Shown piece after piece: positions 20,280 to 59,810 of a stretch of 64,000 nt of DNA. The stretch is taken from assembly GCA_963728565.1 (NCBI GenBank), contig CAVSLC010000005.1, forward strand, positions 160,001 to 224,000, in the 5' to 3' direction. Position 1 is the stretch's first letter, and every line of letters starts with the position of its first letter. The position numbers and the translations under genes are program-made. The notes below the pieces were generated by a model that was given only the letters and a program-made list of their open reading frames with translations, made no database searches and was not told the origin of the DNA. Source of the stretch: an uncultured delta proteobacterium. Lineage in GTDB: Bacteria > Desulfobacterota > Binatia > UBA9968.

Positions 20280-20287
20280 GAACGGCA

Positions 20288-41454: not shown

Positions 41455-41487
41455 CGCGACATTTCGCAAGCATTGCGAAATGTCGCG
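41455..41487. promoter_or_regulatory. Upstream activator sequence (perfect 15-bp inverted repeat)
   Basis: CGCGACATTTCGCAA-gca-TTGCGAAATGTCGCG. The CATTTCG/CGAAATG half-sites resemble the E. coli FhlA site. Confidence 0.75.
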
Positions 41488-41534: not shown

Positions 41535-41547
41535 AATCAACCGCTTA
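41535..41547 (+). promoter_or_regulatory. IHF binding site
   Basis: AATCAA-CCGC-TTA matches WATCAANNNNTTR, between the UAS and the sigma54 promoter. Confidence 0.7.
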
Positions 41548-41553
41548 CATTGA

Positions 41554-41569
41554 TGGCATCACCTGTGCT
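41554..41569 (+). promoter_or_regulatory. sigma54 (-24/-12) promoter
   Basis: TGGCATCACCTGTGCT, with GG and GC at canonical spacing, 36 bp before the STAS gene. Confidence 0.8.
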
Positions 41570-41604: not shown

Positions 41605-41874
41605 ATGCTGCGAATCACTCAAAGCTCTCCGGATGAGGAAACGATCAGTTTACGTTTGGACGGCACCCTTACGGCGACGGCGTGCGGCGAGCTAGAAGCA
41701 CTCTGCTCCGAATATCGGGAGAGTGGCGGGAAGATAATCCACTTGGACATGACCGGCGTGCTTTTCATGAACGAAGAAGTTGCAAAAAGATTGATGGAAT
41801 TACGCAGCAGTCGGCTGAGCATCATTAATTGCTCCCCGTTTGTCGAAATGCTCTTAAAAACCGTAGCAACATAG
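41605..41874 (+). CDS. STAS domain protein
   Basis: MLRIT..LRLDGTL...LDMTGVLFM...INCSPFV STAS-like pattern. Confidence 0.8.
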   Translation: MLRITQSSPDEETISLRLDGTLTATACGELEALCSEYRESGGKIIHLDMTGVLFMNEEVAKRLMELRSSRLSIINCSPFVEMLLKTVAT

Positions 41875-41885
41875 GAGATCAACTC

Positions 41886-42647
41886 ATGCAAGGTTCATTT
41901 GTCGGAACCGAGATCGATAGAAGAAACTCTATGGCTTCTTGCGGTTCTATGATGGCGTTGGGTGACACCCGCGCCGCGAGAAAGACAGGGTCGGCGACCG
42001 GTAGGCTCGAATCGTCGAGCAGATCCAACGCATCCAGACGGAAACAGACCTCCGATAAAGACGATCCGTCGCTGATCGAGCGGCTCAAAGCCGGTGATCA
42101 CGAGGCGCTTGAGACCATCGTCGATCTCTATTCACCAAAGCTCTACAACGTAGCGCAACGAATTCTCGGCGACAGCGCGGATACCGAGGAAGTCATCCAA
42201 GACGTCTTCTGGACCGTCTTTCGCAAGGCCAAGACTTTCCAGGGGAACTCCCGGTTTTCAACCTGGCTTTATCGCTTGACCGTAAACCAGGCTTTGGGAA
42301 GAATCCGGCGCCGCAAAAATCATAAAAGAGAGATCGAGTACGAAGAATACCTGCCCAAGTTTACCGAGGATGGTCACCATCGGATCCGTCCCGTGGTCGA
42401 CTGGTCCGATACTCTCGATCGGAGTTATCTCGAACGAGAAATACAGCGGGTCGTTGAAGCTGCTTTGGAGGGATTGAAACCCCTCGACCGTAGCGTCGTC
42501 GTTCTCAGCGATTTGGAAGGCATGTCGGACAAAGAGATCGCGACTATCTCGCATCTGACTGTGTCTGCGGTGAAGACCCGGCTTCATCGCGCCCGGCTTT
42601 TTTTGCGCGGCCGATTAGCCACATATCTCGGCCACTCGGCCGAATAA
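41886..42647 (+). CDS. ECF RNA polymerase sigma factor
   Basis: EEVIQDVF and FSTWLYRL (sigma2), EIA..SAVKTRLHRAR (sigma4). GGAG RBS before ATG 41886. Confidence 0.93.
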   Translation: MQGSFVGTEIDRRNSMASCGSMMALGDTRAARKTGSATGRLESSSRSNASRRKQTSDKDDPSLIERLKAGDHEALETIVDLYSPKLYNVAQRILGDSADTEEVIQDVFWTVFRKAKTFQGNSRFSTWLYRLTVNQALGRIRRRKNHKREIEYEEYLPKFTEDGHHRIRPVVDWSDTLDRSYLEREIQRVVEAALEGLKPLDRSVVVLSDLEGMSDKEIATISHLTVSAVKTRLHRARLFLRGRLATYLGHSAE

Positions 42648-42673
42648 TGGAGACTGCTGAAATTTGAAACCTT

Positions 42674-42703
42674 TGCAACCTTTATCGACAAACGAGCATC
42701 TAA
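42674..42703 (+). promoter_or_regulatory. Putative ECF sigma promoter, copy 1
   Basis: TGCAACCTTT-N12-GCATCTAA. Confidence 0.75.
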
Positions 42704-42731
42704 AACCCAAGCCTGAGATTACATCGGAGGC

Positions 42732-42974
42732 ATGATCATGGAAAAAACCCGAACCCCGTACATACAGTTTCCGCCGAAAAAGAGTCCCATTCAGACTACT
42801 TTTATGGACCTGATCCAGGAACTCAGCCAACTCACCAACGACGACGGCATGGTCGTCGCGGCGGTTAAAAGAGTCTTCAATTCTCATACTGTACGGTTCG
42901 CTCACTCGCTGACGCCCGTGCGCCTGGTCGCCGGAGGGAGAACCTTGAAATCACGCATCCGTGCGCGCCGGTGA
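42732..42974 (+). CDS. Hypothetical protein (80 aa)
   Basis: ORF with GGAG RBS directly after ECF promoter copy 1. Confidence 0.7.
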   Translation: MIMEKTRTPYIQFPPKKSPIQTTFMDLIQELSQLTNDDGMVVAAVKRVFNSHTVRFAHSLTPVRLVAGGRTLKSRIRARR

Positions 42975-43048
42975 GCTGCCGATTGCCGGCCGGTCACAAT
43001 CGATTGGAGGATTTGCAAATTATTGCCGCTGTCGAGATAAATAGGAGG

Positions 43049-43369
43049 ATGAAACGCCATCGCTCCTCTCCGAGCAGAAAACGTGTCGGCTCGTCAAACA
43101 ACAACAAGACGGGCGAAAGCCGATTTCGGCCGCTGACCTGCGAAAAAGAAACCGCCCTGATCGCCGACTATCTCGCGTCGAATCTCGGCCCCGCAGACCT
43201 CGCGTCGTTCGAAAATCATCTCGAAGAGTGCCCCGATTGCAAGGCGTTTTTGCGGACCTACAAGAAGACTATCGAAATCACCCGCAGCTTCCTCGAGCTT
43301 GAATCTGCCAAAGCGCGCCAGCGCAAACCGGCGCGGCGCGCCGCGAACAGCCGGCAGCGCCGGAACTAA
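43049..43369 (+). CDS. zf-HC2 (ZAS) anti-sigma factor, soluble
   Basis: TC...L.DYL...L...FENHLEECPDC (HxxxCxxC). AGGAGG RBS. Confidence 0.88.
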   Translation: MKRHRSSPSRKRVGSSNNNKTGESRFRPLTCEKETALIADYLASNLGPADLASFENHLEECPDCKAFLRTYKKTIEITRSFLELESAKARQRKPARRAANSRQRRN

Positions 43370-43377
43370 ATAATCTG

Positions 43378-43407
43378 TGCATCCTTTTTCCATCGACCCT
43401 CATCCAA
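43378..43407 (+). promoter_or_regulatory. Putative ECF sigma promoter, copy 2
   Basis: TGCATCCTTT-N12-TCATCCAA. Confidence 0.7.
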
Positions 43408-43713
43408 ATGTGCACAGGATTCTACTGAACCCGGATTGCGCAGTTGAAGGAGAAGTCATGAGCGAGGAGCAAACCTTCCGCAGCGCAGACAATGCGTTTC
43501 TACCTTTGAGAGGCGACAACTGTCGGTGCCGTGCGTAACGACGTCACGCAAATAGAGGCGGCGAGCCAAGCATCAAAAAGGACTTTGAAACGGAACACTC
43601 CGGTGTCTTCGCTTCTCCAGGCTTGCCCCTCGCTCAATTTTTAACTGCGGAATCCGGGCTGACCCTTCCGGTTCGCTAACATCGACCATTCACCGTTTTC
43701 AAGGAGCTCGTGC

Positions 43714-44826
43714 ATGAAAGCTATAGCCGTTACGCCGAGAAAAAGAACCGTCGAAATTATCAATCAAGCCGAACCGCAGATTTTTTCCCCCACGGATGTC
43801 AAGCTGCGCATGCTGGAGGCCGGAGTCTGTGGCACGGACAGAGAAATCTGCGCCTTCGAATACGGGACCCCGCCTGCCGGTTCCGAGCAGCTGGTGATCG
43901 GCCACGAATCTATCGGCGAGGTGATAGAAACAGGTCCGAAAGTCACCCGCGTCAAAGCAGGAGACCTCGTCGTCCCAATGGTCCGCCGGCCGTGCCCGCA
44001 CGACCATTGCGCGGCCTGCCGCGCCGATCGTCAGGATTTTTGCTTCACCGGAGAATTTCAAGAACGGGGTATTAAAGAAAGGCACGGGTTCATGGCGCAG
44101 TTCGTTGTTGACGACGAAAAGTACATGAATCCCGTTCCGAGGGAAATGCGTGACGTTGCCGTTTTGGTAGAGCCGCTGACGATTGCTGAAAAGGGGCTGA
44201 CTCAAGTATGGCAAATGCAACAGCGCCTGCCTTGGGGCTGCCCGGTCACAACGGCAAAAGCAGCGGCTCATTGCCACCGGGCTGTTGTCCTGGGCGCGGG
44301 ACCGGTGGGATTGCTTGGGGCTATGGCCTTGATCAACTACGATTTTGAAACGTATGTTTATTCGCGAGAGCCCGCTCCGAATCCGAAGTCTCAACTACTC
44401 GAATCGATCGGCGCGCACTATATTTCGTCTGACAACATCGCTCCCGAAATGTTTCCCGAACAGATCGGCAACGTAGATTTAATCTACGAAGCGACGGGAG
44501 CTTCGAGCCTGGCCTTCGAAACGATGAAGTACCTCGGCACCAACGGCATCTTTATTTTTACAGGGGTGCCCGGCAGAAAACGCCCCATTCAAGTCGATAC
44601 CGACCTCATCATGCGCAATCTGGTTCTGAAAAACCAGGTCGTCTTCGGCACGGTCAATGCCGGGCGCGACTCCTTCGAAAACTCGATCCGCGATCTCGGC
44701 ACTTTCACCAAGCGTTGGCCCGAGGCGGTGCAGTCGCTGATCACCGGGCGCTTCCCAATGGAGGCTTACGGCGATCTTCTTCTCGGCCGCTCCGGAGGGA
44801 TCAAGAATGTCATCCGACTCAATTGA
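43714..44826 (+). CDS. Zn-dependent glucose 1-dehydrogenase (archaeal-type MDR)
   Basis: GVCGTDREI, GHE, VRRPC, ERGI, GAGPVG and VFGTVNA motifs. Confidence 0.88.
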   Translation: MKAIAVTPRKRTVEIINQAEPQIFSPTDVKLRMLEAGVCGTDREICAFEYGTPPAGSEQLVIGHESIGEVIETGPKVTRVKAGDLVVPMVRRPCPHDHCAACRADRQDFCFTGEFQERGIKERHGFMAQFVVDDEKYMNPVPREMRDVAVLVEPLTIAEKGLTQVWQMQQRLPWGCPVTTAKAAAHCHRAVVLGAGPVGLLGAMALINYDFETYVYSREPAPNPKSQLLESIGAHYISSDNIAPEMFPEQIGNVDLIYEATGASSLAFETMKYLGTNGIFIFTGVPGRKRPIQVDTDLIMRNLVLKNQVVFGTVNAGRDSFENSIRDLGTFTKRWPEAVQSLITGRFPMEAYGDLLLGRSGGIKNVIRLN

Positions 44827-44947
44827 TCCGACGGATGGTTGTTAGAAGCATGTAGCGGGAACTTCGAAGAGCAGAGTGAGTTCGATATGCACCGTTTCGG
44901 ATGATCCCGACCTGGAACGCTGTGACCTTGAAGTCTACTGAGAGCAC

Positions 44948-45733
44948 ATGACGGACGCCTTGAAACGCCATTGGCCCGAATATCTGATGGAGGCTGCTTG
45001 CCTCGGCCTGTTTATGATCTCGGCCTTCACCTTCGGCGCGATTTTGGAATATCCTGGGTCGGCCGTTCATCAGGCTATTCCCTCCTCACTGCTGCGGCGA
45101 TTCTTGATGGGCATCGCGATGGGATTGACTGCTATCCTCATCATATATTCACCGTGGGGCAAACAATCCGGCGCCCATATCAACCCGTCGACTACCCTGA
45201 CGTTTTTTCGACTCGGCAAGGTCGCCAAATGGGATGCGATCTTCTACATCGTCGCGCAGTTCGGAGGCGGCATAACCGGGGCTCTTCTGGCTTCGGCCGT
45301 TCTGGCTGCATGGGTCTCCCATCCCTCGGTGAATTACGTTGTGACAATGCCGGGGAGCGCCGGCATCGCCGCCGCATTCGTCGCCGAAGTAGCGATTACT
45401 TTCATCCTGATGAGCGTAATTCTCCGTGTTTCAAACAATACCCGACTGCATAAACTCACCGGCTTGTGCGCGGGAGCGTTGGTCGCCGCCTACATAACCC
45501 TCGAAGCGCCGATCTCGGGAATGAGCATGAACCCCGCGCGTACCTTCGCTTCCGCAGTGCCGGCGCAGTATTGGACGTCGCTATGGCTTTACTTCACTGC
45601 TCCTTTGATCGGTATGCTGGCCGCCGCCGAGGTCCACCTACGAAGCCGGAGTCCCCGTGTCGGTTGCGCCAAACTGCACCACGAAAATCCGAAGCGCTGT
45701 ATATTTTGCGGCAAACCCGCCTCTAAAGCATAG
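44948..45733 (+). CDS. Aquaporin (MIP family) with Cys/His-rich C-terminal tail
   Basis: SGAHINPS and SMNPART loops, tail CAKLHHENPKRCIFC. Confidence 0.93.
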   Translation: MTDALKRHWPEYLMEAACLGLFMISAFTFGAILEYPGSAVHQAIPSSLLRRFLMGIAMGLTAILIIYSPWGKQSGAHINPSTTLTFFRLGKVAKWDAIFYIVAQFGGGITGALLASAVLAAWVSHPSVNYVVTMPGSAGIAAAFVAEVAITFILMSVILRVSNNTRLHKLTGLCAGALVAAYITLEAPISGMSMNPARTFASAVPAQYWTSLWLYFTAPLIGMLAAAEVHLRSRSPRVGCAKLHHENPKRCIFCGKPASKA

Positions 45734-45865
45734 CGCTTGATAGCGCCGCGGCGCGGCATCGTTTTCGTTCACGCCGGGCATTCAAGATTAGCCGGGACGA
45801 ACGCTCGCCTGCCCGGAAAGACGGCGTGAAAGTTCAGTTGTGATTTAACCGCAGCGCCGCTCGGA

Positions 45866-45895
45866 TGCACCTTTTCTCGCGCGAAGCGCATCTAA
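45866..45895 (+). promoter_or_regulatory. Putative ECF sigma promoter, copy 3
   Basis: TGCACCTTTT-N12-GCATCTAA. Confidence 0.75.
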
Positions 45896-45934
45896 GCAGC
45901 ACGTAAAAAGATCCAGATAACCGGAGGGAAATCG

Positions 45935-46432
45935 ATGAAGCTCATTACGGCTGCCCTCGTAACAGTGACGCTACTGGCACTCTCTTCGGCCGGAGCGGAG
46001 CAGACCATTGAGAAAAAAGGGCTGACTCTGGACGGCGCGAAAAAAGTGATTGCGGCCGCGGTCGCCGCGGCTAAGAGCAAGAACGCGCCGGGCGGCGCCA
46101 TCGCCGTGGTCGACGAAGGAGGCAACCTCATCGCCGTCGAGCGGCTCGACAATACTTTTGCCGCCGGCGCCAACATCTCGATCGGCAAGGCGCGAACTGC
46201 AGTCCTGTTCAAGCGGCCGACGAAGTTCTTCGAAGATGTGATCAACAAAGGGCGCACCGCGATGACTAGTCTTAGTGATTTCACGCCGCTGCAGGGCGGC
46301 ATTCCGATCAGCGTCGATGGACAAATCATCGGCGCGGTAGGTGTTAGCGGCGCGGCCAGCGCCCAGCAAGACGAGGAACTCGCCATCGCTGGAGCCGACG
46401 CTTTGGCGACGAGCTCGGCGAAAATGCAATAG
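45935..46432 (+). CDS. GlcG/HbpS-family heme-binding protein (exported)
   Basis: IAVVDEGG, GKARTA, GGIPI...GAVGVSG and QDEELA motifs. Confidence 0.92.
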   Translation: MKLITAALVTVTLLALSSAGAEQTIEKKGLTLDGAKKVIAAAVAAAKSKNAPGGAIAVVDEGGNLIAVERLDNTFAAGANISIGKARTAVLFKRPTKFFEDVINKGRTAMTSLSDFTPLQGGIPISVDGQIIGAVGVSGAASAQQDEELAIAGADALATSSAKMQ

Positions 46433-46453
46433 ACCGCCAATTCAGGAGACGTC

Positions 46454-47314
46454 ATGAAATTCTTCAAGATTCTTATTGCACTGTCGTTTTTTTTCCTGCC
46501 GGCAACCGGAGCTCAGGCTCAACTGCAAGAGAAAAAAGTTCTAACTCTAGAGGCAGCCGAGAAAGTCGCCGCCGCCGCCGAGGCGGAAGCAAAAAAGAGA
46601 AATGCCACCGTCGTCATTGTCGTGGTGGACGACGGCGGGTATCCGATCGTCCTCAAGCGGCTCAATGACACTCAAGTCGCAAGTGTCGATGTAGGCATCG
46701 GCAAAGCGCGCACCGCGGCCATCTTCCGCCGGCCCAGTAAGGACTTTGAAGATCAGATCACGCAGGGTCGCACAGCGTCGCTCGTTCTTCCCGGGGCCAC
46801 CCCGCTGCAAGGAGGCCTTCCCCTCGTGTTTGATGGCAAGGTCGTTGGCGCGATTGGCGTCAGCGGCAACACGCCGCAGGAGGACGAAGACATAGCCAAC
46901 GCTGGCGCCGCCAGCTTCGAAGCGTCTAATAGAGCCGCCGCCGTATCGATAACCCACCTGCCGGCGAAGCAAGTAAGCCAGGCATTTGTTAAAGGAATGC
47001 CGCTGGTCAGGGGAAAGAATTACAAAGTTGACGCCAGCCACCGCAATGAACCGGGAATCGTGGAAGTTCACACGCGCGATACGGATATTATCTACATGCT
47101 CCAAGGCTCGGCGACTTTGGTAACCGGCGGAACTCTCGTTGATCCGAAAAATATCGAACCTGAAGAGATTCGCGGCCGGGAATCTAAAGAGGGAGAAACT
47201 CGTATGATTACCAAGGGCGACATCGTCGTCATCCCAAACGGCACACCGCACTGGTTCAAGGAAGTCAAAGACCCGATCGATTATTACGTCGTCAAGGTCA
47301 GAGCAGCTGACTAA
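46454..47314 (+). CDS. GlcG/HbpS heme-binding domain fused to a cupin domain
   Basis: GlcG motifs, then EVH...DIIY...G...GDIVVIPNGTPHWF cupin. Confidence 0.88.
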   Translation: MKFFKILIALSFFFLPATGAQAQLQEKKVLTLEAAEKVAAAAEAEAKKRNATVVIVVVDDGGYPIVLKRLNDTQVASVDVGIGKARTAAIFRRPSKDFEDQITQGRTASLVLPGATPLQGGLPLVFDGKVVGAIGVSGNTPQEDEDIANAGAASFEASNRAAAVSITHLPAKQVSQAFVKGMPLVRGKNYKVDASHRNEPGIVEVHTRDTDIIYMLQGSATLVTGGTLVDPKNIEPEEIRGRESKEGETRMITKGDIVVIPNGTPHWFKEVKDPIDYYVVKVRAAD

Positions 47315-47328
47315 TTGAGGATACAAAC

Positions 47329-48988
47329 ATGACAAGGATCTTTCTGATAACCAGTATCGCCGCCCTTTTAGCTCTGCCCACCAAATTTGCCGCCGGAGCG
47401 GCGCCGGACGAATCGCTCGTCGGACGGAAGCCGGAAGCGACGATCGACCTTGCCACTCGACAAGGCGTGGAAACGGTGAAAGCCCAATGGCGCTACAGCG
47501 ACACAGAGATTGTCGAAGTCGATTTCAGATCCGCGGGACCTGACGGACAACCGAGCGGGACGCCAAATAAAGCCTACGACTTCACGCCGCATGCGGGCGG
47601 GGCCGACTTCGACGACTCCAACTGGGAAGTCATAGATTCCACGACTTTGGATCAACGCCGATCCGCTGGCAGACTCGGCTTCAACTGGTACAGGATCAAG
47701 ATCACCGTCCCGCAGCGAATCGGCAGTTTCGATCCAGCCGGCTCGACACTGGTCTTCGCCACGTCCGTCGACGACTATGCCGAAGTCTGGGTGGATGGAG
47801 AGTTGCCGCGCGCTGCCGGTCAGAGCGGCGGGTCAGTCGTCAAAGGCTGGAACGCAGAGAACCGGTTGATCGTCGGCCGTGACGTGAAGGCCGGCCAAAA
47901 GATCCAGCTCGCGATCTTCGGCATCAACGGTCCAATCTCCAATTCACCGACCAACTATATCTATGTGCGCTATGCGAAGCTCGAATTTCACAAAATTCCG
48001 GGCGGGCCTGTTGCGGTGATGCCACAAGAGGTCAACGTGGAAATAACGCCGGCTCGATCCGGCAATCGACGCTATCGTTCCACCCAACCCCAAAATTTTT
48101 AAGCTCGCCGAAGGCTTTCAATTCACCGAAGGACCCGTTTGGTTGCAAAACGGCGATTTTCTCTTCAGCGATCCGAACGCTAATAAAATCTACAAGTATG
48201 CGGCCGACGGAACGCTCTCGGTGTTCAAAGAGAACAGCGGTTACTCCGGCAAAGACATCACTGAATATTTCCAACCGGGCTCCAATGGGCTGACGCTCGA
48301 CCCGGATGGGAGACTGACGATCAATGAGCATGGTAACAGGCGGATCGTGCGGGTGGAAAAAGATGGAAAGCTAACGGTCCTCGCCGATCGCTTCGAAGGC
48401 AAGCGACTCAACAGTCCCAATGATCTCGTCTATCGCTCGGACGGAACGCTCTTCTTTAGCGATCCGCCTTTCGGCTTGCCGAAATTTTACGACGACGCGG
48501 CCAAGGAACTTCCCTACAGCGGCGTGTTCGCCCTCTATAAAGGCCAACTCAAGCTGGTGACAAGCGATCTGAAAGGGCCCAATGGAATCGCCTTTTCACC
48601 GGATGAAAAGTATCTCTATGTCGGCAACTGGGATCCGGAAAAAAAGATCGTAATGCGTTACGAAGTCAATCCCGACGCAACGCTGTCCAATGGAAAAGTC
48701 TTCTTCGACATGACCAGCTCGCCGGGACAAGACGCGATCGACGGCATCAAGGTCGATCAGCAAGGGAACCTCTACGTCTCCGGGCCCGGCGGGTTGTGGA
48801 TTCTTTCGCCGGCGGGCAAACACCTCGGGACAATTAAGGCACCGAAGCATCCGCACAACCTTGCGTGGGGTGGGGAAGACGGAAAAACCCTGTACTTGAC
48901 GGCACAGAGCACGCTTTACCGGATGCCGCTCAATATTCCCGGCATCCGTCCGGCGGATGTAATGAACAAACTCGCCGCGCAGCGTTAG
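47329..48988 (+). CDS. SMP-30/gluconolactonase with N-terminal beta-sandwich domain, frameshift ~48049
   Basis: Removing one base joins the N-domain to RLDPAIDAIV...FTEGPVW, GSNGL, NSPND, PNGIAFSPD and DGIKVD. Confidence 0.85.
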
Positions 48989-49141
48989 GTGAAAGAAATA
49001 GAAACGCCCAAAGAAACGGGAAGAATGGCAATCGCGACCTTAAATTCACTGGGCTCAGAGCAGAATATGCACCGGATCAAATGCGACTCGTTGCGAGTCC
49101 GAAGACGGCAGAAAATACAATTAGGAGAAAAGGGACAATTT

Positions 49142-49715
49142 ATGAGAGAGAGCACACCCTTAAACATCCCCGTCATATTGGGAACCACGCGCAAGGGCCG
49201 CATGAGTGAGCACGCCGCCCGCTTCATGGCGGGGCAGATCGAAAAGCGCAACGGGGTCAGAACCGAACTGATCGATATTTCCAAGCTTCCAATGCCCATC
49301 GATGATGCCGGGGAGGACATCAAAGATCCGGCGTTTTCAGAAAAGATGACGATGGCTGATGCGCTGGTGATCGTGACTCCGGAATACAATCACAGCTTTC
49401 CCGGACTTGCTCAAGCATGTTCTGGACAGCTGCCTGAAAGAATACATCCACAAGGCTGCCGGGATCGTCGGCGTGTCGGCCGGTCCTTTTGGCGGCGTAC
49501 GGGCAATCCAAGACTTTCTGCCGGTGATTCGTGAGCTGGGCCTGGTGAATATTTTCTGGGACGTCAATTTCGGCAACGTAAGCAAGGTCTTCGACGAATC
49601 CGGCAAGCTGCTCGACGAAGCCTTTGTTGCGCGCGCCGACAAGTTTTTGAACGAATTGGTTTGGATGGCGAAAACCTTGCGCTACGGGCGCGACAATATT
49701 GCTCTGGATAGCTGA
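49142..49715 (+). CDS. NADPH-dependent FMN reductase, frameshift ~49407
   Basis: GTTRKGR, TPEYNHSFPG-LKHVLD and SAGPFGG motifs. Confidence 0.88.
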
Positions 49716-49727
49716 CGGGAGGACGAC

Positions 49728-49916
49728 ATGGCGAAACAAAAGAGTGTGATGATTTGTTCGAATTGTGGCAGCGAGATGAATCATCACGCGGATAAGTTAA
49801 TCGATCCGGTGAAGCCGGAAGATCTGCGGCAGGTAAATTCCCAGCTCGGCGGCGTCATCGAAGAAATACACTGCTGTCCCGGATGCGGCGCCGCGGCTTC
49901 GCTTAGGGCAGAATGA
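49728..49916 (+). CDS. Small zinc-ribbon-like protein (CxxC...CxxC)
   Basis: CSNCG.EMNHHA...HCCPGCG. GGAGG RBS. Confidence 0.7.
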   Translation: MAKQKSVMICSNCGSEMNHHADKLIDPVKPEDLRQVNSQLGGVIEEIHCCPGCGAAASLRAE

Positions 49917-49932
49917 GGGAGGGTGAGATTCC

Positions 49933-50616
49933 ATGAGCTTCGATACGACGAGCTTTGAAATCGGTAAAAACCGAATTGAGGCGCTCAGCGATGGCATATT
50001 TGCCATCGTCATGACCCTTCTTATCCTCGAGTTTCACGTCCCAAATCTGCCGTCCAACGCGCCCAATGTCGAGGTTGCGCCGGCGCTGGTTGCTTTGTTG
50101 CCCAAGTTCGCAAGCTACATCGTCACCTTTGTCAGCCTGGGATTCTTCTGGGTCGGTCATCATATCATGTACCATGCCATCCGGCGCGCCGACCGGACGC
50201 TTCTCTGGCTCAACATCTTCTTTTTCATGTTCGTTTCCATGCTCCCGTTCTCGACCAGCGTGCTGAATGCCTTTTCAGAAGCTTTCATCGCGCCGCTCTT
50301 CTTCGGAACCAACCTCGCGATTATCGGTTGGATGTTGTTCTTTCAATGGCGCTATGCAAGCTCGCAACCGGAGATGCTGGCTGCTTTTGTCAGTGCCGAA
50401 TACCGCAATTCGGTACGATCCCGCATGTTGATAGTCCCGGTGGCGACAACGCTGACCGTGTTCATCTGTTTTTGGAGCGTGGGGATTAGCCTGGCGATCT
50501 ATCTCTTGCTTCTTCCTCTGTACATGCTTCCCGGAAAATTAACGGGGCGGCTAAAACTGCTCAAGATTTCAGGCCCGCTTCGTAGAGCGGATTGTTCCTG
50601 CTCAGGAGGAAACTAG
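49933..50616 (+). CDS. TMEM175 (DUF1211) potassium channel family protein
   Basis: RIEALSDGIFAIVMTLL, WVGHH and LPFST motifs. Confidence 0.9.
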   Translation: MSFDTTSFEIGKNRIEALSDGIFAIVMTLLILEFHVPNLPSNAPNVEVAPALVALLPKFASYIVTFVSLGFFWVGHHIMYHAIRRADRTLLWLNIFFFMFVSMLPFSTSVLNAFSEAFIAPLFFGTNLAIIGWMLFFQWRYASSQPEMLAAFVSAEYRNSVRSRMLIVPVATTLTVFICFWSVGISLAIYLLLLPLYMLPGKLTGRLKLLKISGPLRRADCSCSGGN

Positions 50617-50665
50617 TTCCGGCGCTTTCGGGTGAGAGTTCAAAATCATTCTACGGAGGATAGCG

Positions 50666-51691
50666 ATGCGGAATCTTCGATTTTTCCTTGGAGTTTTAAC
50701 GATTGTTCTTTCGATCGCAGCATCCTCCGGGCATCTCTACAGTGAACAAGACAGTCTCCATATCATCGATGTCGTGCGCCTTGATTCTCGTTTCGACAAG
50801 CTCGTGCCGTCGAATCTGAAGATCGAGAAGATCGCCGGCGGCCACAAATGGGTGGAAGGACCGGTGTGGAACCGCCAAGAAGGCTACCTGCTCTTCTCGG
50901 ACATACCAAACAATTCGATCTATAGATGGCAGGAAGACAGAGGCGAAAGTCTGTTTCTAAAACCCAGCGGTTATACCGGCAAAGCTCCATTCGGAGGAGC
51001 CGAGCCGGGCTCGAACGGGCTGGCGTTCGATCCCGCGGGACGGTTGGCACTGGCGCAACACGGTAACCGCCGCATCGCCCGCCTCGAGAGAAGCGGCCGC
51101 ATGACCACGCTGGTGGATCGTTACGAGGGAAAGCGTATCAACAGCCCGAATGATCTGGTCTTCAAGTCAAACGGTGACCTTTATTTTACCGATCCGCCAT
51201 TTGGCTTACCGAAATCCTTCGACGATCCGCACAAAGAACTGCCGTTCCAGGGCGTCTACAGATTCTCCAAAGATGGCAAACTGACGCTCCTGACCAAAAA
51301 CATCAAAGCGCCGAACGGCATCGCGTTCTCGCCGGACGAGAAAAAGCTCTATGTCAGCAATGCCGACGCCAGTAATGCCATCTGGATGGTCTATGACGTG
51401 AAACCGGATGGCACCATCGCGAATGGAAAAACTTTGTTCAATGCTACGGCATGGACGAACAATAAACCTGGCGTGCCGGACGGCATCAAGATCGACAAAG
51501 ACGGCAACCTGTTTGCCGCCGGGCCAGGGGGTATTCATGTCATCGCGCCTGACGGCACTCATCTCGGCAGCATAGAGACAGGCGTACCGACGGGCAATCT
51601 GGCGTGGGGCGAGGATGGATCAACTCTTTTCATCACCTCGAACAAAACCGTTTATCGCTTGAAGCTCGGGACCAAAGGCGTTGGATTCTAG
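50666..51691 (+). CDS. SMP-30/gluconolactonase family protein (exported)
   Basis: EGPVW, FSDIP, GSNGL, NSPND and PDGIKID motifs. Confidence 0.93.
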   Translation: MRNLRFFLGVLTIVLSIAASSGHLYSEQDSLHIIDVVRLDSRFDKLVPSNLKIEKIAGGHKWVEGPVWNRQEGYLLFSDIPNNSIYRWQEDRGESLFLKPSGYTGKAPFGGAEPGSNGLAFDPAGRLALAQHGNRRIARLERSGRMTTLVDRYEGKRINSPNDLVFKSNGDLYFTDPPFGLPKSFDDPHKELPFQGVYRFSKDGKLTLLTKNIKAPNGIAFSPDEKKLYVSNADASNAIWMVYDVKPDGTIANGKTLFNATAWTNNKPGVPDGIKIDKDGNLFAAGPGGIHVIAPDGTHLGSIETGVPTGNLAWGEDGSTLFITSNKTVYRLKLGTKGVGF

Positions 51692-51730
51692 CCGGCATCC
51701 TTGGCGCCGCCAGATCTCGTGCAATCCAGA

Positions 51731-51760
51731 CGCATCCTTTGCCACAGTGCCGGCATCTAA
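51731..51760 (+). promoter_or_regulatory. Putative ECF sigma promoter, copy 4
   Basis: CGCATCCTTT-N12-GCATCTAA. Confidence 0.75.
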
Positions 51761-51828
51761 TCCTGTACGCACCATTTCGAATGATTCAGCGCGAGTATGC
51801 AAAACAAAAACTCACAAGGAGGAAAATC

Positions 51829-52567
51829 ATGGTTACGAAGTTAATAGGTATATCTGCGGGCTTGATGTTGAGTGTGGCCGGGGTTTCAGCGGCAGACGAC
51901 GGCATGGCAACAAAATTTACCGTACGGATCGAGAACATCACCAAGCCCGACGCATTTACGGCGTCGAACGGCGAAAAGTGGTCGCTTGCATTCTCGCCCG
52001 GCATGGCAGTGGTGCATACTGAGAAGGCGCCAATTTTTAGCGCCGGGAAAAAGGACCGCAGCCAAGGGCTCGAAGCGCAGTCCGAGGACGGCGACCCAAG
52101 TATGCTCGCCAAGTCGCTTCAGAGTGTCAAAGGAATAAAATCGATCGTGGTTTTTACCACGCCGATTGGCGCGGCCGGCCCAGGCCCGATCACTCCAGGG
52201 GCAGCTTACGAATTCACGTTTTCCGCAATCGCGGGCGATCGACTATCGCTGACGACGATGATGGGCCAGTCCAATGACTGGTTCTACGCTCCGGCGGAAT
52301 CCGGCATCGATCTGTTCGAGAACGGCAGGGGCATCAGCGGAGATATCACGTCGCAAATGGTTCTCTGGGATGCCGGCACGGAAGTCGATCAGGAACCCGG
52401 CATCGGCTCCGACCAAGGACCGCGGCAGAAAGCGCCCAACACCGGCGCCGCCGAGAATGGCGTCGTGCGCAATGCGAAGGATGTGAAATACGGCAGAGCT
52501 TATGCGAAGATGTCTCAGCGTCATGCGCGTCACCATCACGCCGGCGAAAGCGCCAGGCTCTAATTAA
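51829..52567 (+). CDS. Spondin_N domain protein (exported), probable frameshift ~52515
   Basis: FTVRIEN, FSPG...VH, EDGD, M.GQSNDWF and WDAGTE motifs. The shifted frame ends VMRVTITP. Confidence 0.85.
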
Positions 52568-52696
52568 GACGATCGATTATCATGCGAAATGTTTAATTCC
52601 GTCGGCGCGCCTCGGCGCGCCGGCGGATAAAAGCTTCATACGGTTTGCAAGTCGTGCTACGAACCACGGCACCACAGCGCCGATGGGACTCACGCT

Positions 52697-52777
52697 GTTT
52701 AACGCCAAGGCTGAGAAGCGACGGTCCGCGAGCTTTGCGAGCGGGGCCGTACGTCTTTCTCAAGCCGCTGGTTAGGG
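52697..52777 (-). repeat. attC site 3
   Basis: Minus strand CCCTAAC-cagc-GGCTTGAGAA...TTCTCAGCC-ttggc-GTTAAAC, an imperfect hairpin. Confidence 0.8.
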
Positions 52778-52790
52778 GCTGCAAGTCGGT

Positions 52791-52991
52791 TCACGTCAGC
52801 TCTTCGAGAAACTCGACGTCTTTTTTCAGCAATTGATTCACCATCTCGCCAACATCCTTGCCTTTCCTACGGGCAATGCGCTCTAGTTTACTCTGCAGTT
52901 TAGGTTCTAGATAAATCGGTAGCCGCAGTTCGGCGCCTTTCCGATAAAACTTCCCTCGGACGGCTTTCGAAAAATCATATTCTCGTCTCAT
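52791..52991 (-). CDS. BrnA/CopG-like antitoxin
   Basis: MRREYDFSKAVRGKFY N-terminus, directly downstream of BrnT. Confidence 0.8.
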   Translation of the reverse strand: MRREYDFSKAVRGKFYRKGAELRLPIYLEPKLQSKLERIARRKGKDVGEMVNQLLKKDVEFLEELT

Positions 52992-52994
52992 AGT

Positions 52995-53294
52995 TTATTT
53001 CCTCTGATATTGCTTCGTTTCGTTCTTTGTTGCTTTTCGCGCTGATATCAGGCGTACTCGCGCACTGTTTTCCGCTTCTTCACGATACGTATGGGAAATA
53101 ACCAACAACGCACCAGTCTGATCCAACCCCAAAGTTATCCACCTTTCCTCCTCTTCACTATGTTGCTCATCGAATAATGACAAAGCGTTTGGATCTAAGA
53201 ACACTGTGGCTCCGCGTTCAAATGTAACACGATGTTTTCTTGCATTTTGCCGGGCCTTAGAAGGGTCCCATTCAAAGTGGAATTGAAACGCCAC
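52995..53294 (-). CDS. BrnT-family ribonuclease toxin
   Basis: FEWDPSKARQN.RKH.VTFE, HSEEEER...LG and RLISARKAT motifs. Confidence 0.92.
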   Translation of the reverse strand: MAFQFHFEWDPSKARQNARKHRVTFERGATVFLDPNALSLFDEQHSEEEERWITLGLDQTGALLVISHTYREEAENSARVRLISARKATKNETKQYQRK

Positions 53295-53351
53295 GCGGGA
53301 ATTATCTCATAAAACGCGAGAGAAAAGCACGTTGGCAGCAGTCGCGATCAA

Positions 53352-53409
53352 TCCTAACGTGGCGCTCAGGCGGCGCTCTTAACGATCGGTCTGAAGCGCT
53401 TAGTTATGT
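53352..53409 (-). repeat. attC site 2
   Basis: Minus strand ACATAAC-taagcgc-TTCAGACCG...CCGCCTGAgcgccac-GTTAGGA. The DUF2442 stop codon lies inside the R'' box. Confidence 0.88.
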
Positions 53410-53721
53410 GGTGGATTCCGTCAGGCTGTGCTTCGCGGAGCCCCATTTCGTTGCTAAAGCCGTGAGCGCAGGTCCTGATTCGGGCCAGTTATGTAGAATC
53501 GCTGGGTCAAAATCTGCACCATTTGGCCAAACAAGCGTGTGAATCTCTGGATCAATACGAACCTGATCAAAAAGTGTGGGCTCTTGCAGAGGACCGTATA
53601 GTTCCCCCTTCAGGACAGGACGGAAATCAATAATTTGAGACGTGCCATCGTCAAACTGCACCCGCAGGGTGAACGGCGCTACTTTCTGGAACGAGGAAAC
53701 CCGATAAATCTCATGACCCAT
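53404..53721 (-). CDS. DUF2442 domain protein (putative antitoxin)
   Basis: LRVQFDDG, L...FDQV.ID and TLVWPNGADFDP motifs. Confidence 0.88.
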   Translation of the reverse strand: MGHEIYRVSSFQKVAPFTLRVQFDDGTSQIIDFRPVLKGELYGPLQEPTLFDQVRIDPEIHTLVWPNGADFDPAILHNWPESGPALTALATKWGSAKHSLTESTT

Positions 53722-53734
53722 ATGGTAGACCCTC

Positions 53735-54004
53735 TCACTTTAACGGTTCAATCTTAATGGGCGGACGACCCTGTTGCAACGTCTGCCAGTTCGACAATAA
53801 CTCTTCCTGATGAAGCTCTGCCCAGGCCAGAACGAGACGCTCCTGCCGTCTCGGAAGGGAACCAGCCAAACGCTCGATCTTGCCGATATCATAGATTCCC
53901 ACATGGTCCTGATAATACGCGTGGAAGTGAGGCATATGATGCTGTCCTCCTGCCTCGACGAACATGCGAATGATAATGCCGAAGAATCTAGAAACCTCTG
54001 GCAT
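53735..54004 (-). CDS. DUF4160 domain protein (putative toxin)
   Basis: MPEVSRFFGIIIRM, H..PHFHA.Y, WAELHQEELL.NW and IEPL motifs. Confidence 0.9.
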   Translation of the reverse strand: MPEVSRFFGIIIRMFVEAGGQHHMPHFHAYYQDHVGIYDIGKIERLAGSLPRRQERLVLAWAELHQEELLSNWQTLQQGRPPIKIEPLK

Positions 54005-54025
54005 TACTTATCCAGTTCATAGACC

Positions 54026-54084
54026 ACATAACGTGAGCGCTCAGCCGGCGCTTTTAGCGACCGGTCTGAAGCGACGGGTTAGGA
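54026..54084 (-). repeat. attC site 1
   Basis: Minus strand TCCTAAC-ccgtcgc-TTCAGACCGG...CCGGCTGAgcgctcac-GTTATGT, closely similar to attC2. Confidence 0.88.
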
Positions 54085-54105
54085 GGCTTTCAGAGCCAAC
54101 ATGAA

Positions 54106-54530
54106 TTACGATCCCGGAACTCGCGATGAGTGGTGATCAACGATTAACCATTTTCCGTTACGATTTCGGTAAACAAATGTGAAACGGGCAGGGTTCGCAA
54201 AAGTATAGTAGCCGGTGTTTATGGCCACATCACCATATACCCGAATATGCTGTTCGCCGAGAGTAACTCTCGCTTTTCGGTTTTTGCCGGCATCCTTCGA
54301 AATACTCAGCAACTGCAGCCGGATTTGCAGCGATAGTTTTCGCCGACGTTCCCCAAAACACTGCTTCGGGGTCATACAGCGAGGTGATACGCGCAGGATC
54401 ACGGCGATCATACGCCCAACCCACGCGGAAGTCGCCTCGGCCACTGTTGCGCAGTGTCAGTGCGATCCGCAGTTATAGTCCCACATGCCGCAACCAAAGC
54501 GACAAGAAAAAGCGTAATCAGATTTCGCAT
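54106..54530 (-). pseudogene. NTF2-like (DUF4440/SgcJ) lipoprotein cassette gene, frameshifted
   Basis: Pieces MRNLITLFLVALVAACG / LYDPEAVFWGT / AINTGYYTF..ARFTFVY..GKWLIVDHHSS lie across different frames. Confidence 0.75.
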
Positions 54531-54706
54531 ACTGTTAATAATCCTCTAACCATTGAGTATACTGACCAGTATATTACCGACTCCGAAAATCATAGCGCAG
54601 CAAAATTGAGCTTTTCAATCACGCCGTTATCAACTGTTTTCTAGTAACGGTCATTCAATATACCAGGTCAGTATATTACGAATATACCTGCATAGACCGC
54701 CCTTGC

Positions 54707-55082
54707 TCACAATGCGTCTGCAGGACTCCGAACTCCCTTCCACCTCGATTTAACACGTGCGTGTAAACCATAGGGTAGCACATCATTGTGGCCCAAAAGT
54801 TCCTGGAAGTCCGAATGTCGTATCCATTCTCTAGCAAGTGCGTAGCAAATGAATGGCGCAAACTGTGCGGACCGGCGGGCTTGAACACGCCGGCTTTAAG
54901 CCGAGCTTCTTTAAACGCCCGTTGCAAAACGGTCTCATGGAGATGATGCCGGCGGTTTTCTCCTGTCGATCTGTCAAGTAATGACTTGTGGCGGGGAACA
55001 CCCGCTGCCATCCCCATTCTTGGCCGGCGTTCGGAATTTGTGGTCGAGGGCCATTCGGTAAAGATACTCCGCCTGATCCTTT
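54707..55082 (-). pseudogene. intI: Integron integrase (IntI) C-terminal remnant
   Basis: IntI-specific insertion (VSLP...[15 protein letters not shown]), [35 protein letters not shown] and GVRSPAD. Several frameshifts and no N-terminus. Confidence 0.9.
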
Positions 55083-55178
55083 TGCATCACCGTTAAAGCG
55101 GTTGAACTCCAGCAGCCAAGCTGTTTCTCACCGCGAGAGAGTATCCCGCTCTAAACACGATTCAGGGTTTGCGAAGTC

Positions 55179-55208
55179 TGCATCGTTTCACTCCTTGGCG
55201 ACATCTAA
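55179..55208 (+). promoter_or_regulatory. Putative ECF sigma promoter, copy 5
   Basis: TGCATCGTTT-N12-ACATCTAA. Confidence 0.75.
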
Positions 55209-55260: not shown

Positions 55261-55767
55261 ATGAGTAAACGTAATCTTATTATCGGGGTCGCTGGCGTCG
55301 CACTGGCAATCGCTTGGTACGCGTTCCGGCCCGAGTTGCTCTTCATCAACAAAACCGTCAACGAGGAGCTGCCGGTTGCTCAGGCAGGCTCAGTATCGAT
55401 GGCCAAAGAAACAGAGACCATGGTTTTGGCGAAGGGCGATTTTCGCGGGCTGGCGCACGAGACCAAAGGCGAAGCGACGGTTCATCGATTGGCGGACGGC
55501 AAGCGCATACTGCGGCTGAGCGATTTTGAGACTTCCAACGGTCCGGATGTCCATGTCTATCTGGTTGCCGCCGAAGTGGCCAAGGACAATGCGACTGTCA
55601 AGCAAGCCGGCTTCATCGATTTGGGTTCACTCAAAGGCAACAAGGGCGATCAGAACTATGATGTGCCGGCGGATGCCGATCTCAACAAGTACAAGTCGGT
55701 GAGCATCTGGTGCGCGCGTTTCGGGGTTAACTTTGGCGCCGCTACTCTTGGTTCACAGAGCAGCTAG
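55261..55767 (+). CDS. DM13 domain protein
   Basis: LFINKTVNE, H.T.G, NGPDVHVYL, LKGNKGDQNY and IWCARFGVNFG motifs. Confidence 0.92.
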   Translation: MSKRNLIIGVAGVALAIAWYAFRPELLFINKTVNEELPVAQAGSVSMAKETETMVLAKGDFRGLAHETKGEATVHRLADGKRILRLSDFETSNGPDVHVYLVAAEVAKDNATVKQAGFIDLGSLKGNKGDQNYDVPADADLNKYKSVSIWCARFGVNFGAATLGSQSS

Positions 55768-55842
55768 AGGACCGCTATTCCTTGTCGGCTGCTTTCCCTG
55801 CGGGGGAAGCAGCCGGTTTGAGAAAGTACGAAAGGATTCGAG

Positions 55843-57156
55843 ATGGCCAGGGGCAGAAAACAGATTGTGATCCTCGGCGGCGGCTTCGGCGGTCTCTACA
55901 CCGCCCGAGAACTGGAAAAAAAGCTCGGCGCGGATCCGGATGTCGAGATAACGCTGGTGAACCGCGACAATTTCTTTCTCTTTACTCCGATGTTGCATGA
56001 AGTAGCCGCCAGCGACCTCGACCCTGCCGACATCCTGAATCCGATCCGCAAGCTTTTGAAGCAATCTCGTTTCTTCGTCGGCAATGTCGAGGCGATCGAC
56101 CTCGACTCCAAGAAAGTCAAAGTCTCTCATGGAGAGGGCCAACATCCGCATGAGCTGGCGTACGATCAACTGGTGATCGCGCTGGGCTCGGTCAGCAATT
56201 TCTTCACTCTCCCTGGAGTTGAAGAGCGCGCGCTGCCCATGAAGTCACTCAATGATGCAGTGACCTTGCGCAGCCGGCTTATCGAGCAGTTGGACGAAGC
56301 CGATTTTGAATGTTGTCCGGCGATGCGAGCTTCGTTGATGACCATCGTTGTAGCCGGCGGCGGTTTTGCCGGCGTTGAGACGGTTGCGGCAGTAAATGAT
56401 TTTTTACGCGAAGCCTTGAAGTATTACCCGAACCTCAGCGAAGAAATGATTCGCGTCGTGCTGGTTGAACACGGGCCTGCGGTCTTGCCGGAGCTCGACG
56501 GCAGCTTGGGTGCATATGCGGCGGAGAAGCTTTCCCGGCGCGGAGTTGAGATACGGCTTCAAACCGCCGTGACTTCCATGTCGGAGCGCGCTGTAACCCT
56601 GAGCGACGGCACGTCTATCCACACCCGGACTCTCGTCTGGACGGCGGGCACTGCGCCGAATCCTTTGCTGGCGGCGCTTGCCTGCTCAAAGGAGAAGGGC
56701 AAGTTGATCGTCGACGAGAATCTTGAAATTCCCGGCCGGCCGGGCGTCTGGGCGCTGGGCGACTGCGCCGCGATTCGCGATCGCCAGTCCGGCAGGCTTT
56801 ATCCGCCGACAGCGCAGCACGCCTTGCGCCAGGGAAAAGTTGTCGCACACAATGTCATCGCCGCGATTCGTGGGACGGCAAAACAACCCTTCGTTTTCTC
56901 CACCATCGGCCAACTCGCTGCCATCGGCAGGCGAACCGGTGTCGCCAACATCTTGGGTGTCAACTTCTCCGGCTTCATCGCCTGGTGGATGTGGCGAACC
57001 ATTTACCTGAGCAAGCTGCCGCGCCTTGAGAAGAAAGTGCGAGTGGCGCTGGGCTGGTCACTCGATCTGTTTTTTTCGAAGGATCTCGTACAGCTCAAAA
57101 CCAACGACGCGACGGTTTGCCGCGGCGCTGCGGTTAAACAACAATCCGCTGCCTGA
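55843..57156 (+). CDS. Type II NADH dehydrogenase-like FAD-dependent oxidoreductase
   Basis: GGGFGG, FTPML.EVA, GGGFAGVE, WALGD and PPTAQHA motifs. Confidence 0.9.
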   Translation: MARGRKQIVILGGGFGGLYTARELEKKLGADPDVEITLVNRDNFFLFTPMLHEVAASDLDPADILNPIRKLLKQSRFFVGNVEAIDLDSKKVKVSHGEGQHPHELAYDQLVIALGSVSNFFTLPGVEERALPMKSLNDAVTLRSRLIEQLDEADFECCPAMRASLMTIVVAGGGFAGVETVAAVNDFLREALKYYPNLSEEMIRVVLVEHGPAVLPELDGSLGAYAAEKLSRRGVEIRLQTAVTSMSERAVTLSDGTSIHTRTLVWTAGTAPNPLLAALACSKEKGKLIVDENLEIPGRPGVWALGDCAAIRDRQSGRLYPPTAQHALRQGKVVAHNVIAAIRGTAKQPFVFSTIGQLAAIGRRTGVANILGVNFSGFIAWWMWRTIYLSKLPRLEKKVRVALGWSLDLFFSKDLVQLKTNDATVCRGAAVKQQSAA

Positions 57157-57171
57157 GAAAGGAATAAGAAT

Positions 57172-58743: not shown

Positions 58744-58754
58744 GACACAGCAAA

Positions 58755-59795: not shown

Positions 59796-59810
59796 TCCGG
59801 CAGAGAGTTT

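Follow-up and report, generated by a model that had tools for sequence, protein, structure and literature searches.

Does a two-part DNA motif that recurs in front of genes of an uncultured delta proteobacterium (Binatia) mark the promoters of a sigma factor of the extracytoplasmic function (ECF) type encoded beside it, and what in turn switches on the gene for that sigma factor? The window considered here, by which we mean the whole 64,000-nucleotide (nt) stretch that was analyzed, covers positions 160,001 to 224,000 of contig CAVSLC010000005.1 (assembly GCA_963728565.1). The initial annotation had found in it five copies of the motif YGCAnCnTTT-N12-nCATCYAA and had taken them for promoters of the local ECF sigma factor. 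That reading stands but was incomplete: the motif is very probably the promoter of this sigma factor, while the ECF gene itself lies without a copy of the motif behind a predicted enhancer-dependent sigma-54 promoter.

All five copies, at 42674, 43378, 45866, 51731 and 55179, are exact in their letters, lie on the + strand with a 12-nt spacer, and are intergenic. The strict pattern has exactly these five matches in the entire genome (4,529,011 nt, both strands, in an assembly that is 80.6% complete), and genome-wide there is no match with a spacer of 11 or 13; none of 100 shuffles contained any. Since the strict pattern was fitted to these five copies, the real tests are the ones on held-out sequences.

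For such tests we collected relatives of the ECF gene from GTDB genomes, which gave 26 loci, 22 of them at 64–94% identity; these 22, used as the orthologous set, come with the other relatives mostly from Candidatus Binatia and delta proteobacteria, with one from Syntrophobacteraceae. Relatives keep the gene order activator, STAS-like protein, ECF, a zinc-binding anti-sigma factor (ZAS1, where present), a small protein (orf80), a second zinc-binding anti-sigma factor (ZAS2), glucose dehydrogenase (gdh), aquaporin and HbpS, and among the 22 loci the activator is found in 19, the STAS gene in 20, a zf-HC2 gene in 19, gdh in 16, orf80 in 15 and the aquaporin gene in 13, counts that are bounded by many short contigs. 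The motif recurs in 18 of these loci and is specific to strand and spacer: at a threshold of at least 14 bits, a matrix built from the five window sites gives 64 matches in 298,728 nt on the ECF strand with a spacer of 12 and 0 on the opposite strand, and 4, 6, 7 and 2 matches with spacers of 10, 11, 13 and 14. As for the four loci that have no copy, L010 and L020 end at or just after the ECF gene, and L017 and L018 are ECF copies outside the cluster. Nearly all of the top sites (51/52) fall outside the open reading frames (ORFs) mapped by tblastn. The consensus is YG[C/T/A]A[T/A]C-yTTt, 12 nt, gCATC[T/C]AA or, spaced by its core, TG[C/A/T]A[T/A]C-yTt, 17 nt, CATC[T/C]AA, with transcription predicted to start 6–7 nt further on.

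Two signals that lie outside the fitted motif columns point to that start. Of 93 distinct non-leaderless sites, 84 show a pyrimidine–purine step that ends 6 nt (50 sites) or 7 nt (34 sites) after the -10 box, where chance would give about half, and the same signature is found in 6/6 window sites; a pyrimidine–purine start signature is given for 67.3% of predicted ECF promoters in the part of PMC7776599 concerned with them. In the other 12 of the 105 distinct sites a start codon stands exactly at nt 7, after six variable bases, and where inspected the gene is the aquaporin gene, which is therefore predicted to have a leaderless transcript. As orthologous sites have a common origin, the counts make the sites look more independent than they are. 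No A/T-rich element is evident upstream of the motif sites. In sum, the sites are bipartite -35/-10 elements with a fixed spacer, oriented, intergenic and upstream of genes, as expected of ECF promoters, and we regard it as highly probable, from sequence comparison, that this is what they are. RNA contigs from four runs in three soil studies cover the STAS, ECF, orf80 and gdh genes at ∼90–97% identity, one of them spanning 41637–42888, and 18 runs contained small shares; since neither start sites nor strand nor level can be read from contigs, we did not use them as support.

A matrix of 52 sites from 20 other loci ranks seven copies top genome-wide at spacer 12 (21–29 bits). Beside the original five, these are a sixth at 61773–61802, before an MGH1-like glucosidase gene (21.4 bits; an orthologous site stands before the same gene in L027), and a seventh on contig C11 (position 97066, - strand), before a DM13-like remnant. 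The same matrix gives two matches above 22 bits at spacer 14, and hence only the top seven at spacer 12 were treated as sites; a genome scan with the five-site matrix at 12–16 bits gave similar counts for spacers of 10–14 and was uninformative. The degenerate sixth copy proposed at 44888, before the aquaporin gene, was discarded: it scores 2.0 bits on an orthologue-trained matrix, against 26–29 for the five, and is not where the orthologous aquaporin promoter sits. The proposed distance of 30–70 bp between motif and start codon holds approximately for four sites (28 or 34, 39, 68 and 52 nt, to start codons at 42732 or 42738, 45935, 51829 and 55261) and fails for the site at 43378, which lies 306 nt before gdh in the window and 73 nt before it in L001 and L002. 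The short ORF at 43458 that had been named as the first target of this site was rejected as a regulon gene, being part of a 229-nt inserted element absent from L001, L002 and the relatives' RNA contigs; the true target is gdh. A weaker candidate site is found at C25:71477, ∼215 nt before the msrP gene of the same genome, as in L019.

The sigma factor itself matches Sigma70_r2 (residues 79–144) and Sigma70_r4_2 (189–240) with no match to region 3, and scores 102 bits with TIGR02937 against a cut-off of 42.9, i.e. it is a short protein with regions 2 and 4 and lacking region 3, like other ECF (group 4 sigma-70) factors. To tie it to the motif we used distant relatives at 37–47% identity (29 fetched of 35 non-self matches), each of which is followed by an HxxxCxxC protein (29/29); no STAS or activator gene was seen within 1.5 kb of them. 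Unseeded two-block Gibbs sampling of the 130 nt upstream of their own genes, with block widths and spacer range preset, found GAA[A/C/T]C...ATC(T)AA 34–64 nt upstream in 26/29, seven of them with an exact CATCTAA, at an information content of 11.5–14.8 in six runs versus 9.7–9.8 in three shuffles. By the classical autoregulation argument, a motif upstream of the relatives' own genes ties this ECF lineage to this -10 box. Co-occurrence points the same way. Within the family the ECF gene has a patchy distribution (31/70 genomes), and all 31 genomes that have it carry at least one site (105 in total), whereas a reversed-pattern control gives 7 in the 70 genomes; 21 of the 39 genomes without the ECF gene have no site, versus 0/31 of those with it.

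The distant pairs of loci L043–L071 are widespread combinations of an ECF and a soluble zinc-binding anti-sigma factor in the same phylum, apparently autoregulated through GAA[A/C/T]C-N17/18-ATC(T)AA, a motif that may be the missing promoter of ECF270, the described group that best fits the local sigma factor. Several of their anti-sigma factors have a C-terminal extension, and in L046 a second zinc motif was matched.

Several observations weigh against assigning the motif to this sigma factor. The -35 element of the distant relatives has GAA and not GCA, and the window's spacer recurs in 6 of the 26 aligned cases, the other 20 having one base less. The motif and the ECF gene travel within one cluster and kin are not independent, some metagenome loci are near-duplicates, and the 52-site matrix is not fully independent either, its sites having been picked with the five-site matrix and thus seeded by the window. 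In addition, 32 sites occur in 18 of the 39 family genomes that gave no ECF match, and for G342, G333 and G367 (2, 2 and 3 sites) a profile search found no ECF orthologue. Start sites, binding and activity of all sites are, moreover, predictions.

Sites in genomes without the sigma factor, some of them nearly complete, could mean that a different and more widely conserved ECF reads the motif, alone or besides the local one, for example one with a CGTCTAA-type -10 box. Other ECFs of the same genome are 28–34% identical to the local one, and three of their genes have (GG/TA)AAC...CGTCTAA upstream, one base from CATCTAA, as candidate autoregulatory promoters (G000, C10:∼238330, - strand; C4:∼55200, - strand; C12:∼17420, + strand); a few sites in ECF-bearing loci likewise read CGTCTAA. 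Yet the position that distinguishes CATC from CGTC is an A in 51 of the 52 sites, the sites cluster directly behind this ECF and its anti-sigma genes, and it is the distant relatives of this ECF that carry a CATCTAA-type box before their own genes. The division of sites between ECF-bearing and ECF-less genomes also speaks for the local factor, and among the six of the 18 ECF-less, site-bearing genomes that were inspected, three exceptions dissolve into a frameshifted ECF (G331, which is L022, and G363) or a deletion scar at gdh (G340). On balance, we consider another reader of the motif unlikely.

Autoregulation of the local ECF through the motif was rejected: in the named loci the stretch from the activator to the ECF gene is free of sites, as it is in all of 35 metagenome loci, with one possible exception by read-through in L041, where the ECF gene follows msrPQ-like genes behind an ECF site. 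As judged from its upstream region, the ECF gene of the window is not autoregulated. What stands there instead is the anatomy of an enhancer-dependent sigma-54 promoter. The sequence TGGCRY-N6-TGC, which we take to represent the -24/-12 consensus, is found 45–56 nt before the STAS start in 20/20 aligned regions, with 0.0014 expected per 15-nt window, and has the -24 GG and -12 GC with a 10-nt gap. Relative to the -24 element, the first enhancer 12-mer lies at -96 to -99 in 20/20 regions, and it is usually doubled at 19 nt, and the pair in the window is the only such pair in the genome. Between the two, a site resembling that of integration host factor (IHF; WATCAA-N4-TTR) occurs with at most one mismatch in 10/20 regions compared to 0.8% of random windows. 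The divergently encoded activator has its GAFTGA and Walker motifs intact in seven aligned copies; its best NCBIfam match is FhlA (PRK15429), at 465.5 bits against an equivalog cut-off of 830, which it does not reach. Its N-terminal input varies among relatives (L080, which is G363:C46, L083 and L084): a PAS domain is present in the window and absent in some, and that of the G363 activator presumably resembles MEDS.

A metagenome scan for enhancer plus sigma-54 promoter, made on DNA only, returned 47 loci, downstream of which a STAS gene was found in 44/44 and an ECF gene in 35/35 informative cases, with a divergent activator in 27 of the 28 that had enough flank. The ECF sites of these loci number 40 on the same strand, 0 on the opposite strand and 0 between the enhancer and the ECF start. 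The STAS-like protein has no Pfam match itself, though its homologues carry PF01740/PF13466, and what we assume to be the phosphorylatable-serine motif of anti-anti-sigma STAS proteins is not evident in its alignment.

The annotation had further proposed that the ECF transcribes its own anti-sigma gene as negative feedback; gene order and a structure model back this, with the caveat that the zinc-finger protein in question lacks the helix-4 motif. In 16 of 19 cluster loci a full-length anti-sigma factor, ZAS1, lies directly behind the ECF gene. None is found at this position in the window, L001, L002 and L019, where the sole copy is ZAS2 at +2, behind orf80. ZAS2 has the zinc motif of a class I anti-sigma factor of this type, C-x25-H-x3-C-x2-C, within a three-helix core, and C31, H57, C61 and C64 are invariant in 18 aligned copies. 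In an alignment made by eye, the IP..VR..I..FL segment that corresponds to helix 4 in ZAS1 and the distant relatives is replaced in ZAS2 by a short, poorly conserved basic tail. It is helix 4 of anti-sigma factors that binds sigma region 2, according to the part of PMC7406223 that treats it. A model of the complex of ECF, zinc and ZAS2 (residues 24–100) scored 0.87, versus 0.05 for the best of three controls; the mark for a pass was reached by 116/157 solved pairs and 2/215 mismatched pairs; contacts agreed at ≥92% between runs, the pLDDT of the partner was ≥82, and the interface involved mainly region 4 and the linker. Since ECF/anti-sigma complexes have been solved, the model may pass through likeness to them, which counts against reading it as independent support. 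For orf80 no family match was found, and its two helices gave no fold match (the highest Z, 3.3, is uninformative in both directions).

Co-transcription of a full-length anti-sigma gene in 16 of the 19 cluster loci suggests that post-translational control probably coexists with the sigma-54 promoter. Taken further, the ECF would read the motif but be controlled mainly by its zinc anti-sigma factor, and the sigma-54 promoter and enhancer would be relics or serve the activator's own control. Genome G017 (L041) fits such a view, having the ECF, both anti-sigma genes and ECF sites but no activator, STAS gene or sigma-54 promoter, as do the ECF copies of L017 and L018, which lie without the cluster. 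We nevertheless find it very unlikely, since the -24/-12 element points at the STAS–ECF genes with fixed enhancer spacing in every aligned region, persists (by eye) in divergent members at 51–55% ECF identity, is not replaced by an ECF site before the ECF gene in any of the 35 metagenome loci, and was kept in the window lineage after the co-transcribed anti-sigma gene was lost. That the motif is instead an operator for a DNA-binding regulator such as orf80 (small, conserved and without a family), read as a direct repeat GCATC...GCATC two helical turns apart because many copies share GCATC in both halves with a 21-nt period, is barely credible given that the left half changes between TGAAAC, TGTAAC and TGCAAC, which are known -35 types of ECFs, while the right half is constant, that orientation is strict and the start signature and leaderless start codons lie at a fixed distance, that the region has no excess of sigma-70 consensus promoters (8 found versus 8.1 expected), and that sites persist where orf80 was not detected (L012, L015).

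Returning to the motif as ECF promoter beneath a sigma-54 switch, we think it likely that the whole forms a cascade from activator through sigma-54 to an ECF270-like sigma factor and a stress-type regulon with negative feedback (Table 1). In a first step, a small-molecule signal at the GAF/PAS domains would activate the FhlA-like protein, which, bound to the tandem enhancer and aided by bending by IHF, would open the predicted sigma-54 promoter (41554). This would lead to synthesis of the ECF and the STAS-like protein, in most relatives together with the full-length zinc anti-sigma factor; here the anatomy is observed and the activity conjectural. ECF holoenzyme would next fire six promoters in the window and a few elsewhere, with an output of enzymes for sugar mobilization and redox reactions along with channels and secreted proteins, whose simplest interpretation is cell protection under oxidative, osmotic or starvation stress. 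Finally, P1 would supply the shortened anti-sigma factor that, in the model, contacts region 4 of the sigma factor and would damp the response. With no autoregulation of the ECF, the output would be a signal-dependent pulse and not a self-sustaining switch. Two points tell against the cascade: a search of the 80.6% complete genome, which has ∼18 sigma-54 activators, did not find rpoN (it is present in 30/30 relatives), and the inducing signal and physiological role are guesses that rest on gene names.

Table 1. Features of the regulatory system and its predicted targets in the window
Feature	Position	Strand	Remarks
FhlA-like sigma-54 enhancer-binding protein (PAS-GAF-GAF-AAA+-HTH), proposed sensor	39004..41394	-	Pfam; divergent from ECF operon
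Enhancer (upstream activating sequence)	41455..41487	.	12-bp pseudo-palindrome present twice at a distance of 19 nt; in the window, a perfect 15-bp inverted repeat
IHF-like site	41535..41547	+	0 mismatches to WATCAA-N4-TTR; between enhancer and sigma-54 promoter
Sigma-54 -24/-12 promoter of STAS–ECF operon, predicted	41554..41568	+	TGGCRY-N6-TGC
STAS-like protein, 89 aa	41605..41874	+	Atlas 0.94 to STAS clusters; in 20/22 loci
ECF sigma factor (ECF270-like)	41886..42647	+	Sigma70_r2 + r4_2; TIGR02937 above cut-off
Predicted ECF promoter P1 (-35 TGCAAC, -10 CATCTAA)	42674..42703	+	Predicted start ∼42709; orthologous sites before orf80
orf80, conserved 78–80 aa protein	42732..42974	+	In 15/22 loci
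ZAS2, soluble zinc-binding anti-sigma paralogue, proposed feedback brake	43049..43369	+	zf-HC2; helix-4 motif lacking
Predicted ECF promoter P2, for gdh, here probably aquaporin too	43378..43407	+	Predicted start ∼43414
Miniature inverted-repeat element in gdh leader, outside the regulatory system	43430..43658	.	19-nt terminal inverted repeats
Glucose dehydrogenase gdh	43714–44826	+	Pfam
Aquaporin-family channel	44948–45733	+	Pfam
Predicted ECF promoter P3	45866..45895	+	Predicted start ∼45901
P3 operon	45935..51691	+	Two HbpS/GlcG-like proteins, split gluconolactonase, frameshifted FMN reductase
P3 operon, further genes	within 45935..51691	+	62-aa CxxC protein, TMEM175-like channel, second gluconolactonase
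Predicted ECF promoter P4	51731..51760	+	Predicted start ∼51767
Spondin-domain secreted protein	51829..52563	+	Family match
Predicted ECF promoter P5	55179..55208	+	Predicted start ∼55214
P5 operon	55261..61577	+	DM13 protein, NDH-2-like flavoprotein, GMC oxidoreductase, VOC protein, amylo-alpha-1,6-glucosidase
Predicted ECF promoter P6, missed by the initial annotation	61773..61802	+	Predicted start ∼61808
MGH1-like glucosidase, 883 aa, extends past window	61913..64000	+	

Further genes that lie behind sites in relatives encode MsrP, a DNA ligase of the ATP-dependent type, a sugar-nucleotidyltransferase and a protein with a diadenylate-cyclase domain. We infer a protective programme in which sugar reserves are mobilized, reducing power is restored and damage is repaired. 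The leaderless aquaporin promoter (44913–44947), clear in most relatives, is degraded in the sub-lineage of the window (L001 and L015 too), and the aquaporin gene is here probably read from the gdh promoter. In some relatives (L029, L033), ECF sites stand before genes for the arsenosugar-type radical SAM protein ArsS and for a methyltransferase similar to ArsM; the genome of the window yielded no ArsS.

The description of the region as an island lacks compositional support, since its G+C of 0.52–0.585 is similar to that of the remaining window and the genome; the occurrence of the ECF gene in the family is patchy. A plasmid search returned distant ECFs only (best about 36%), and in a 300-genome sample of the phylum the top matches included no close orthologue outside the genome of the window (best 47%). 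The ECF tree is a quick one whose root is disturbed by long branches, and we claim no order of events from it. The element in the gdh leader (∼229 nt, non-coding, with an inner 33-nt inverted repeat) has five other near-full-length copies, at C25:177088, C12:54847, C23:236675, C14:45807 and C13:381635; counting the one in the window, at least six near-full copies at 83–100% identity suggest that it was recently mobile. Between the spondin and DM13 genes, 52580–55170 (- strand) is an insertion that holds a BrnT-type toxin–antitoxin pair, a DUF2442 gene, a SnoaL-like fragment and the remnant of a phage integrase; some of the inserted DNA is 77% identical to L022 DNA. Frameshifts split the gene for the gluconolactonase (47329–48988), whose frame is intact in L012, and that for the FMN reductase (49142–49715), and are probably assembly errors; a relative's contig differs by 1 nt at 49405, and similar breaks of the ECF gene are seen in L002, L017, L022 and G363. 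Farther away, 18528–23942 (+ strand) holds an ordinary cytochrome c oxidase cluster (COX1, CtaA, a UbiA-family protein and two COX3).

These results give an ECF lineage a predicted promoter sequence and regulon, where its best-fitting group is listed with neither a conserved promoter nor experimental data. Classification pipelines that seek a motif before the ECF gene would miss it here, as with HrpL. For the uncultured Binatia, the circuit offers a first way into the regulation of a stress-type gene cluster; literature searches gave us no description of this cluster being co-regulated. Being small, the circuit is testable in E. coli and could yield an orthogonal two-layer switch. A bolder extension, which we offer tentatively and think rather doubtful, is that the circuit acts as the master switch of a programme for general stress or dormancy, of another design than RpoS, SigB or PhyR–EcfG: a GAF enhancer-binding protein and sigma-54 would trigger an ECF270-type sigma factor, a full anti-sigma factor would set the threshold, an induced half anti-sigma factor, perhaps completed by orf80, would end the pulse, and the whole would have arisen from an autoregulated pair of ECF and zinc anti-sigma moved under sigma-54 control.

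How does this circuit compare with known systems? Our literature searches did not find the motif or the circuit described, though the motif could sit in the supplements of PMC7826278 or PMC7776599. Group ECF270 fits best by its description, with a soluble zinc anti-sigma factor at +1 (as in the 16 cluster loci and all 29 distant relatives, and not in the window, L001, L002 and L019) and Deltaproteobacteria among its hosts; ECF271 also has such a factor at +1, in the corresponding entry of PMC7826278. For ECF270 that classification (Casas-Pastor et al. 2021), in its entry on the group, gives promoter motifs that are not conserved and no conserved context beyond the anti-sigma factor, and PMC8999054, where it treats the group, calls it experimentally uncharacterized. 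The lineage of the window, in contrast, has a conserved motif, an activator/STAS/sigma-54 module, a shortened second anti-sigma factor and a multi-operon regulon. In the promoter listings of PMC7826278, ECF18 (TGCATCTT/CGTA), ECF245 SigW (TGAAAC/CGTAT), ECF255 (TATGGAT/GCATCT), ECF29 (GGGAACCT/CATCCAAT) and ECF279 (TTGCAA/CGTCTAA) each share one half of the motif, and none is described there with this -35/-10 pair; most of these groups come with membrane anti-sigma factors or with C-terminal extensions. In region 4.2, the residues KTRxHR of the local ECF match those of SigW (ECF245).

In the upper tier, the activator is like FhlA in its GAF-GAF-AAA+-HTH layout, and the enhancer shares the half-sites CATTTCG and CGAAATG with the FhlA enhancer CATTTCGTACGAAATG, as given in the relevant part of PMC4987338. 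Unlike FhlA, it has an extra N-terminal domain, PAS or other, and the half-sites are 9 nt apart, not 2; the target of FhlA is formate hydrogenlyase, whereas the proposed target here is a sigma factor. The nearest likeness in wiring is HrpRS–sigma-54–HrpL (ECF32) of Pseudomonas syringae, where an enhancer-binding protein and IHF switch on a non-autoregulated ECF that is subject to negative feedback (PMC5263251, PMC8999054, in their accounts of HrpL). The predicted circuit shares with it an enhancer-binding protein with IHF, a sigma-54 promoter, a non-autoregulated ECF firing a set of boxes, and feedback. HrpL, which PMC8999054 reviews in its section on ECFs without an anti-sigma factor, reads GGAAC/CCAC and drives type III secretion; the window motif differs, and no secretion genes were found among the annotated targets. 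Unlike HrpRS, the system described here has a single divergent GAF-bearing FhlA-like activator, one or two zinc anti-sigma factors and a STAS partner, its feedback would act through an induced anti-sigma factor and not through promoter occlusion, and its predicted targets are metabolic and stress genes. By analogy, then, the circuit works like HrpRS–hrpL in its wiring without being a member of that system, and would be a second, unrelated instance of an enhancer-binding protein acting through sigma-54 on an ECF, one in which anti-sigma control was retained and duplicated.

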